A DNA stretch of 33,113 nt from a virus. Lineage: Duplodnaviria > Heunggongvirae > Uroviricota > Caudoviricetes. Position numbers and translations under genes: made by a program. The notes below the pieces were generated by a model. It searched no databases, had not been told where the DNA came from, and saw nothing but the letters and a program-made list of their open reading frames with translations. This document shows positions 4,255-4,691 of the stretch, one piece after another. How positions within the stretch are numbered: position 1 is the stretch's first letter; every line of letters starts with the position of its first letter. The DNA is taken from the IMG/VR virus record IMGVR_UViG_2529292715_000006. One strand, 5' to 3'.

Positions 4255-4302
4255 TTTGCTGCTCCTCATCATATCGACCCTGCAAGGCCGATTAGTTTCT
4301 CC

Positions 4303-4391
4303 ACAAAACAGAGAAGAACACCTGCGGTAGCAGCCGCCCGGATGGATTGGGTTATGAGCCCGTCGTCCGGTGATGCTCTTCTCTGTTTTGT
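4303..4391 (-). repeat. Long inverted repeat: 18-nt arms (ACAAAACAGAGAAGAACA / TGCTCTTCTCTGTTTTGT) around a 53-nt GC-rich core
   Basis: 17 Watson-Crick pairs plus one position that is A-C on the plus strand but U-G on the minus strand, favouring a minus-strand RNA; lies in a ~430-nt stretch with no convincing ORF. Confidence 0.4.
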
Positions 4392-4691
4392 AAAAAGGAC
4401 GGTACCAGCCGGAAGCAAGGGTACAAACTGGTACCGCCAGGACTACACACAGCATAAAGTTGTGGTGCCGGGTGCCTCCCGGTGCCTGGCGAAGGTTGCA
4501 CACCAGACGGGTGGGTATCCACAGAAGGTCGACTGTCAGCCTCAACCTTAACCCGCGTGCGCTGAGCCGCATTCACCACAACTCTAAGGATTCTCTTTGG
4601 TTGAAAATACTTAGCTGTTATGTGCCTGTCTTTTCACCACTTCAGGCTCGGTGGTATCCTTTTAAGCCCGTATACATAAAAGGAAAATCAA

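Follow-up and report, generated by a model that had tools for sequence, protein, structure and literature searches.

A prophage small RNA with its terminator and an adjoining three-way-junction RNA with one arm that matches the anticodon stem-loop of the initiator tRNA

The phage sequence IMGVR_UViG_2529292715_000006 of IMG/VR (Caudoviricetes; 33,113 nt, analysed over its whole length and hereafter called the window) contains, in its early-left region, a gap of about 430 nt (positions 4255-4691) which a sequence-only reading had described as structured non-coding DNA. We propose that the minus strand of this gap encodes a small RNA (sRNA) with its terminator and, on read-through transcripts, a junction RNA that would be cut by RNase III and would mimic the anticodon arm of the initiator tRNA. 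As a whole, this reading has in our estimate a probability of about 45%. Central to it is a three-way-junction RNA (4391→4303, minus strand), delineated from folds, covariance modelling and covariation, which recurs in two distinct genomic contexts and carries a hairpin loop and stem identical to those of tRNA-fMet.

Structure and conservation of the junction RNA

The junction RNA begins at the base directly after the U-tract of the sRNA terminator. Its outer helix, P1, pairs 4391-4372 with 4322-4303 (20 bp), and pairing of the U-tract (4396-4392) with 4302-4298 could extend it by 5 bp, to 20-25 bp in total. The arms of this helix had been noticed as 18-nt inverted repeats (4303-4320 and 4374-4391), which both a repeat finder and the sequence confirm, and which in fact stretch to 25 nt (4303-4327 and 4367-4391) with 84% complementarity. 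Within the 18-nt arms, only A4318 and C4376 fail to pair on the plus strand, and on the minus strand they do form a U-G pair. Junction base A4371 is followed by the P2 arm (4370→4338), in which P2a pairs 4370-4364 with 4344-4338 and, beyond an internal loop (AC / AAUC), P2b pairs GGG (4361-4359) with CCC (4351-4349) around the loop CUCAUAA (4358-4352); the core of the arm reads GACGGGCUCAUAACCCAAUCCAUC (4364→4341). The third helix, P3, is a hairpin (GCGG-CUGCUA-CCGC, 4337-4324, minus strand) which varies among homologues in sequence and in length, from 14 to about 50 nt. Between the repeats, where the sequence-only reading saw a 53-nt GC-rich core, there is thus a conserved two-hairpin junction, one hairpin of which, overlooked at the time, matches the anticodon arm of initiator tRNA.

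Two forms of the element were found, a class A to which the window copy belongs and a class B found mostly in Klebsiella phages. Folding of the minus-strand RNA, a check that had been suggested for the window, yielded -51.2 kcal/mol (z = -7.6, with 0 of 200 shuffles as good), the plus-strand fold being weaker (-46.9 kcal/mol, z = -5.3). Among 36 distinct sequences, 66 G-U pairs were counted against 34 A-C pairs, and A-C pairs drop to 14 when one doubtful position, which supplies 20 of them, is left out. This excess of G-U over A-C favours a single-stranded minus-strand molecule and agrees with the structure having been placed at the RNA level, on that strand. Compensatory changes, which the earlier reading had named as evidence to be sought, are plentiful: more than 200 variants of the junction RNA from Enterobacterales phages covary. 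In an alignment of 11 class-A sequences, 92.5% of cells are paired and 6 of the 34 pairs have changed on both sides (covariation score 0.157, versus 0.097 after shuffling; reached by 0 of 500 shuffles); in 22 sequences from both classes, restricted to P1 and P2, 94.9% are paired and 8 of 16 pairs have changed on both sides (0.365 versus 0.191; again 0 of 500). Slid pairing registers give only 33-52% paired. P2a alone occurs as CCGGGUG/CACCCGG, CCUGAUG/CAUCAGG and ACGGAUG/CAUCCGU.

A covariance model built from the 11 class-A sequences (R1) finds one copy in the window, at 118 bits. A scan with an exact pattern that fixed the core located it in at least 120 IMG/VR viral contigs and, among bacteria sampled at one genome per species, in 23 Enterobacterales species plus two apparent chance matches in other phyla; by BLAST, Klebsiella and Pantoea phages match as well, but over the inner core only. 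The structure is missing from the degenerate-pattern matches found in soil metagenomes and a mitovirus-like contig (L166, L170 and L140), which were treated as chance. One contig (L093, 9208-9335) joins a P1 5' strand of the window type to the P3 and P1 3' strand of another lineage, indicating a recombination joint inside the junction element. No Rfam family matches the junction RNA, either at gathering thresholds or at E <= 10, and no paper on its core sequence was found in the literature searched.

The likeness to tRNA lies in the P2b hairpin, where 13 nt (GGGCUCAUAACCC, 4361→4349) are identical to the anticodon stem-loop of E. coli tRNA-fMet, the reference for which was confirmed as the annotated metZWV genes. 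Read from the sequences, identity amounts to 17 of 19 nt over tRNA positions 25-43. P2b has the features of a tRNA anticodon stem-loop, namely a 7-nt loop, U33, an anticodon and a purine at position 37, and three consecutive G-C pairs are a hallmark of initiator tRNA. As the first pattern had fixed the core and thereby biased the sample, we re-sampled the elements with the 3' strand of P1 as the only anchor: the exact 13-mer is present in 47 of 91 unique elements and CAU in 77, the other loops including CCCAUAA (10), UUCAUAA (8), CUCAUUA (6) and a CUCAUUC lineage. Together with the copy in prophage e14 described below, these variants indicate that the loop is under clear, though not absolute, constraint. 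Elsewhere in the window, CTCATAACCCAA at 13881-13892 (plus strand; codons 2-5 of a holin-like ORF starting at 13877) equals the loop region of the junction RNA in the same sense, where about 0.05 matches were expected over all 12-mers tested. This only 12-mer match in the window was considered as a pairing partner of the CAU loop and set aside: it is in the same sense and probably due to chance.

Around the core, two arrangements recur. Class A comprises the window, SfII/SfIV, ST64B, e14, Stx2 phages, and Citrobacter and Enterobacter prophages, and has the order terminator U-tract, long P1, core, GGAGAAAC and first gene of the leftward operon; this gene is YfdP-like in 98 of 132 cases and otherwise RdgC-like, Xis or other. 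The conserved GGAGAAAC, directly 3' of P1 (4302-4295, minus strand), is kept in nearly all class-A variants. It can pair with the terminator U-tract, and might serve to lengthen the helix, as a target for RNase, or as a CsrA- or ribosome-like site. After the junction RNA, the fold shows a small hairpin (AUCGGCCU-UGCA-GGGUCGAU, 4292-4273, minus strand) ahead of the YfdP-like gene and its Shine-Dalgarno sequence; homologues have analogous small hairpins with other stems, many with ...GCAG... loops. P1 length is bimodal, with 18-26 paired positions (most class-A elements) versus 6-10, and the window P1 is long enough for an RNase III substrate, which requires near-continuous double-stranded RNA of at least about 20 bp. 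In Pantoea phage PA-1 a long P1 again follows the terminator, as in class A, but upstream of lysis genes.

Class B consists of 74 unique variants of about 71 nt. The core mostly adjoins the last tRNA of an array (Arg, Asn, Thr or Phe) through a GAUAAU linker, or, in a few cases, follows a short hairpin ending in RCCA or ACAA instead of a tRNA. Its P1 has only 6 bp (GGCCUG/CAGGCC), and CAGGCC-RCCA is kept in about 70 of the 74 variants despite at least five unrelated families of downstream DNA. A strong terminator lies 60-90 nt downstream of the core and is followed by lysis genes; class-B phages carry the Q antiterminator. The acceptor stem, 3' RCCA and RNase P-type 5' junction seen in class B are absent from the window copy. 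U(-1), G1-C72 and RCCA are features used by RNase P and tRNA 3' processing; G2-C71, C3-G70 and the CAU anticodon are presumably identity elements for methionyl-tRNA synthetase (MetRS). As the core is flanked either by a helix of RNase III length or by tRNA-type ends, the functional product would most simply be the excised core.

The small RNA, its terminator and the e14 homologue

Upstream of the junction RNA, alignment with Rfam family RF02076 and folding delineate an sRNA of the STnc100/PasD type, about 213 nt long (4604→4392, minus strand). Thus, a small RNA, one of the candidates put forward earlier, is present, but it is the adjacent transcript and not the hairpin itself. In a permissive search of 701 nt, RF02076 (STnc100) aligned over its full model (1-206) with 4389-4604 of the minus strand, at 39.6 bits (E = 4.6e-7). 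The gathering cut-off of this family is 47 bits, and at gathering thresholds Rfam has no match over the whole window; the sRNA is therefore a divergent early-left relative rather than an STnc100 member by the Rfam criterion. The covariance-model search that had been recommended thus found a sub-threshold relative for the sRNA and none for the junction RNA. The sRNA has the architecture of STnc100 (closing stem, internal hairpins, 3' intrinsic terminator, prophage context), folding as a multi-branch domain closed by UUGUGGUG/CACCACAA, then a single-stranded stretch and the terminator, and its homologues in e14 and ST64B are weaker matches to the same family. Of the traits of an Hfq-dependent base-pairing sRNA, it shows only the terminator with its U-tract and the single-stranded stretch in front. 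Its 5' end at 4604 is placed by the RF02076 alignment only, and the candidate promoter (-35 at 4637-4632, -10 at 4613-4608) is weak and was not called by the promoter scan. A hairpin between the sRNA start and the plus-strand ORF (ACCACTTCAGGCTCGGTGGT, 4636-4655, plus strand), which overlaps this weak -35, was predicted to be a terminator on the plus strand, and a strong 3' end on the minus strand of e14 (1201423) maps to the same place. It may be a bidirectional terminator that ends pL transcripts ahead of the sRNA.

The intrinsic terminator of the sRNA (4438→4392, minus strand) is supported by the fold and by the alignment with the STnc100 terminator. It consists of a 13-bp stem (4438→4398; -20.5 kcal/mol, z = -3.8) made from two GGUACC motifs, a 15-nt loop and the U-tract UUUUU (4396→4392), and was missed by a simple terminator scan because its loop exceeds 8 nt. 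The three GGTAC(C/A) motifs that the sequence-only reading likened to operator half-sites are where it had placed them (GGTACC at 4401-4406, GGTACA at 4420-4425 and GGTACC at 4430-4435), but the likeness did not hold: the two GGTACC are the strands of the terminator stem and GGTACA lies in its loop. GGTACA is a genuine CI operator half-site in this SfV-type window (TGTACC-N5-GGTACA at OL and OR); as no complete TGTACC-N5-GGTACA exists in 4396-4440, the resemblance is incidental.

STnc100 and PasD are related prophage sRNAs (bioRxiv 10.64898/2026.05.13.724894). PasD identity was considered for the window sRNA and rejected, as the PasD1 locus of E2348/69 differs in sequence; in a comparison with PasD1, the PasD probe/seed CCTTGTGAGTTCTGGCTGCGCATG (complementary to CUCACA(GG)) has no counterpart in 4392-4604, and no junction RNA lies behind PasD1 of E2348/69. 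Some observations concern the origin of the sRNA family. The stem UUGUGGUG/CACCACAA and a hairpin abutting its 3' strand (CCGGG-AGGCA-CCCGG) resemble an acceptor stem and T arm, giving the sRNA a tRNA-like outline, and an e14 3' end lies just after the stem. In some class-A phages, a tRNA-like gene is found upstream of the sRNA (L107 1077-1203, minus strand; L089 1800-1925, plus strand; 40-44 bits with the Rfam tRNA model), in which the acceptor, D and T arms are normal and an insertion of about 64 nt takes the place of the anticodon arm; in L089, the STnc100-like sRNA has the same 5' leader as this gene (GGCAGUGCUCUYUNCGUUGUGGU). The STnc100 family may be tRNA-derived.

Prophage e14 of E. coli K-12 carries a 90%-identical copy of the element (89 bits with R1), annotated as ORF ymfH (b1142; 312 nt, 2502-2813 of contig L155). 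This ORF falls entirely within sequence that specifies the 3' two-thirds of the sRNA, its terminator and the junction RNA, and so very probably encodes no protein; the window plus-strand ORF 4342-4551 is likely spurious because it likewise overlies the RNA elements. Term-seq of e14 yielded three minus-strand 3' ends, at 1201195, 1201257 and 1201423 (PMC7815308, supplement). The first is 163 nt upstream of the xisE ATG and, mapped onto L155, coincides with the final U of the homologous U-tract, one base before the hairpin, which confirms the sRNA terminator in e14; the second lies just after the closing stem of the sRNA and the third upstream of the sRNA start.

The same interval responds to RNase III, in line with the processing site for this enzyme that had been among the candidates for the gap. 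In total RNA-seq (PMC7373196, Table S1c), sense reads over ymfH rise from 4.4 reads per million (RPM) in the wild type to 68.6 in rnc-14 and 34.2 in rnc-38, that is, 8-16-fold, with antisense reads staying at about 1 RPM. Neighbouring genes change less than about 2.5-fold either way, with 18.7, 25.3 and 11.9 RPM for ymfG (wild type, rnc-14 and rnc-38, respectively), 24.7, 52.8 and 27.3 for ymfJ, and 155, 110 and 62 for ymfK. The predicted strand is thus transcribed and the RNase III effect is specific, as abundance data which do not resolve the cut position and which concern e14, not SfV. Over-expression of "ymfH" is also listed among the prophage triggers of the retron-Sen2 toxin RcaT (bioRxiv 10.1101/2020.06.22.160242); the clone expresses these RNAs, and the active agent could be RNA rather than protein.

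Proposed function and alternative explanations

Under the proposed reading, the sRNA terminator would act as an attenuator, and read-through would yield the junction RNA. RNase III would cut within the long P1, separating the sRNA from the YfdP-YfdQ...xis-int message, setting or limiting the level of read-through RNA, and releasing a compact P2-P3 core. Once released, the core could mimic the tRNA-fMet anticodon arm in trans and might engage MetRS, the 30S P site or initiation factors, or nucleases of the VapC/MvpT type. In the Klebsiella form, with its 6-bp acceptor-like P1, U(-1)/G(+1) and RCCA tail, release of the core would fall to tRNA-processing enzymes. In S. flexneri, tRNA-fMet is cleaved by VapC/MvpT, which provides a precedent for the target, and nucleases of this type cut tRNA-fMet in both Shigella and Salmonella; the VapC cut site is reportedly A38/C39. 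Phages have also been reported to avoid encoding tRNA-fMet.

Several observations weigh against this reading. Cleavage by RNase III within P1 and a partner of the mimic are both predictions, and a place at the head of operons that need read-through also fits a purely cis-acting role. The loop is not invariant: U33 is C in 10 of the 91 elements, CAU is lost in e14 (UUAAUAA) and in a few others, and one lineage combines a 6-nt loop with a compensated GUG/CAC stem. ARAGORN, run in standard, relaxed and mitochondrial modes, detects no tRNA in the window element, its only call being of the mitochondrial type in one Pantoea copy; the Rfam tRNA model (RF00005) has no match even at E <= 10, and the window copy has no CCA end. 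Finally, double-stranded RNA captured by p19 is low over ymfH (PMC7373196), and the rise in the rnc mutants may be indirect or may originate elsewhere in the 312-nt ymfH interval.

A bolder extension of the proposed reading, which we consider doubtful, is that the junction RNA represents an unrecognised class of phage tRNA mimic, a decoy or competitor for some host factor recognising the CAU anticodon arm, set free by RNase III in the SfV, ST64B and e14 types and by RNase P and tRNA 3' processing in Klebsiella. Such a mimic could, for example, shield the initiator tRNA from VapC/MvpT toxins during lytic growth, or titrate MetRS or the 30S P site and so reprogram translation initiation. It is even conceivable that methionine is charged onto the Klebsiella form.

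The main rival is a purely cis-acting leader, in which an RNase III site and a 5' untranslated structure would set the stability or translation of the read-through message, and the tRNA arm would be a vestige of a tRNA-gene origin or an unrelated protein-binding site. This explanation is possible, if on balance unlikely. The position of the class-A element, always between the terminator and the first gene of the operon, speaks in its favour, as do the conservation of the flanking GGAGAAAC and of a second hairpin before the Shine-Dalgarno sequence, the RNase III dependence in e14 and the tolerance of the loop to some change. It accounts poorly, however, for the Klebsiella core, in which a P1 of 6 bp is too short for RNase III, the 5' junction and RCCA tail are of the tRNA type, and the core lies upstream, not downstream, of the terminator. 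Moreover, the downstream gene varies, and the CAU loop is kept far more strongly than expected of a vestige.

We find it improbable that the element is a functionless remnant, whether decaying tRNA-derived sequence or a conserved linker at a mosaic joint. It does stand at a module boundary, homology with Stx and mEp460-type phages ending at about 4439; the L093 copy is recombinant inside the element, and the e14 loop has diverged. Yet compensatory substitutions keep the three helices across genera, the core is conserved in two unrelated genomic contexts and the CAU loop is under purifying selection.

An antitermination RNA of the HK022 put type, which would bind RNA polymerase as nascent junction RNA and carry it past early-left or, in Klebsiella and Pantoea, late-operon terminators, appears improbable. 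The element does lie in the leaders of two types of operon that need antitermination in lambdoid phages, class-B cores precede by 60-90 nt a strong terminator ahead of lysis genes, and no N-like protein was recognised next to pL. However, R1 with filters off finds nothing in positions 20000-40751 of HK022 (its best score, 19 bits, being palindromic noise), and the class-A element follows, rather than precedes, the only clear terminator. Class-B phages carry Q, and the RCCA tail and tRNA-fMet identity would be left unexplained. The put RNA consists of two tandem stem-loops, as against a three-way junction here.

Finally, readings at the DNA or protein level (a mobile element, a CI operator cluster or cruciform, or a small protein from 4342-4551), which the inverted repeat itself, the genuine GGTACA half-sites elsewhere and an ORF annotated in ON470603 might suggest, are contradicted by the data and were rejected, given one copy per prophage in a fixed context, the lack of a full operator in 4396-4440, the G-U versus A-C asymmetry and the poor quality of the ORF. 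The miniature mobile element once suggested for the repeats thus finds no place: their context is constant, they covary, and the window contains no further copy of the arm sequence (chance expectation, 0.13 matches). As for coding potential, the earlier verdict that the gap is non-coding stands, with no credible ORF in 4255-4691 and minus-strand ORFs of low complexity. The plus-strand ORF 4342-4551, annotated as a hypothetical protein in phage record ON470603, lacks a Shine-Dalgarno sequence, ranges in length from 14 to 72 aa across homologues, is conserved over only about 19 residues where it overlaps the RNA core, has unconserved C-termini and, in class B, would run antisense through a tRNA.

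Genomic neighbourhood and comparison with known systems

The region is 99.6% identical to Shigella phage SfV (BLAST match, NC_003444 24562-25112). On one side the gap is bordered by orf32 of the SfV record (YfdP-like; 3892-4254, minus strand), with a Shine-Dalgarno sequence at 4267-4262 and an ATG at 4254, and on the other by the cI side of the early-left region. There, a small ORF (4692-4937, plus strand) and orf33 (4855-5151, minus strand) match only PHROG families of unknown function, and comparison of the flanking ORFs with PHROG families identified no N-like protein next to pL. The promoter scan called a strong pL-like promoter (TTGACA-16-CATAAT, 5284..5257, minus strand), and a scan of the window placed a terminator after cI. 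Sites with the pattern TGTACC-N5-GGTACA, which are likely CI operators, lie at 5250-5277 and 6015-6083, with two over the strong leftward promoter and three half-site pairs between cI and cro. Similar DNA is present in about half of complete E. coli genomes, at a median of one place per genome and always in prophage-type contexts. By BLAST, the homology with Stx2 and mEp460-type phages stops inside the sRNA terminator.

If functional, the junction RNA would constitute an RNA family spread widely among the temperate phages of E. coli, Shigella, Salmonella, Klebsiella, Citrobacter, Enterobacter and Pantoea; neither Rfam nor the literature searched contains it. The presence of a copy in K-12, as the spurious ymfH, makes a direct test possible by genetics and with existing RNA-seq. 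The results also call for annotation corrections (the ymfH ORF, the plus-strand "hypothetical protein", and the missing sRNA and terminator), and suggest that, in SfV-type phages, read-through of the terminator supplies the yfdP...xis-int operon with transcripts, under RNase III control. If the proposed mimicry is real, current views of phage tRNAs as counter-defence would widen to include a copy of the anticodon arm, a non-decoding mimic aimed at the one tRNA that phages reportedly avoid encoding.

Among known systems, STnc100 is the closest to the sRNA, which aligns with the whole model, including the closing stem UGGUGAAU...CACCGGGAGGCACCCGGCACCA and the terminator, and which is prophage-encoded like STnc100 and PasD. 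It differs in being early-left, whereas PasD1 of E2348/69 and the stx2-linked STnc100, a copy of which lies 75 nt downstream of stx2, are in the late region. The sRNA is thus a divergent relative of a known family, and its terminator is ordinary. P1 recalls the RNase III hairpins of the lambda N leader, sib, T7 R1.1 and the metY-nusA leader, as a long near-perfect hairpin between a stable RNA and an mRNA, and also in that the abundance of the e14 homologue depends on RNase III. These known sites are simple hairpins, whereas the window P1 encloses a conserved two-arm junction with tRNA identity. The likeness to HK022 put is that of a structured RNA in a lambdoid operon leader, with no match in sequence or structure and with a different topology and position relative to the terminator. 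The M3 RNA of phi80, a known RNase P substrate, was considered and set aside, as it is an oop homologue elsewhere in the phi80 genome and not the junction element. Finally, the junction RNA is not a tRNA: it has neither D arm nor T loop, its P2 "anticodon arm" is longer (7 + 3 bp with an internal loop), and the window copy has a 20-25-bp helix in place of an acceptor stem. Its Klebsiella sister form, by contrast, is tRNA-sized, has U(-1), G1-C72, G2-C71, C3-G70, R73 and CCA, and closes tRNA arrays. The junction RNA, with its putative function, is best filed with phage tRNA-like RNAs, combined with an RNase III hairpin.

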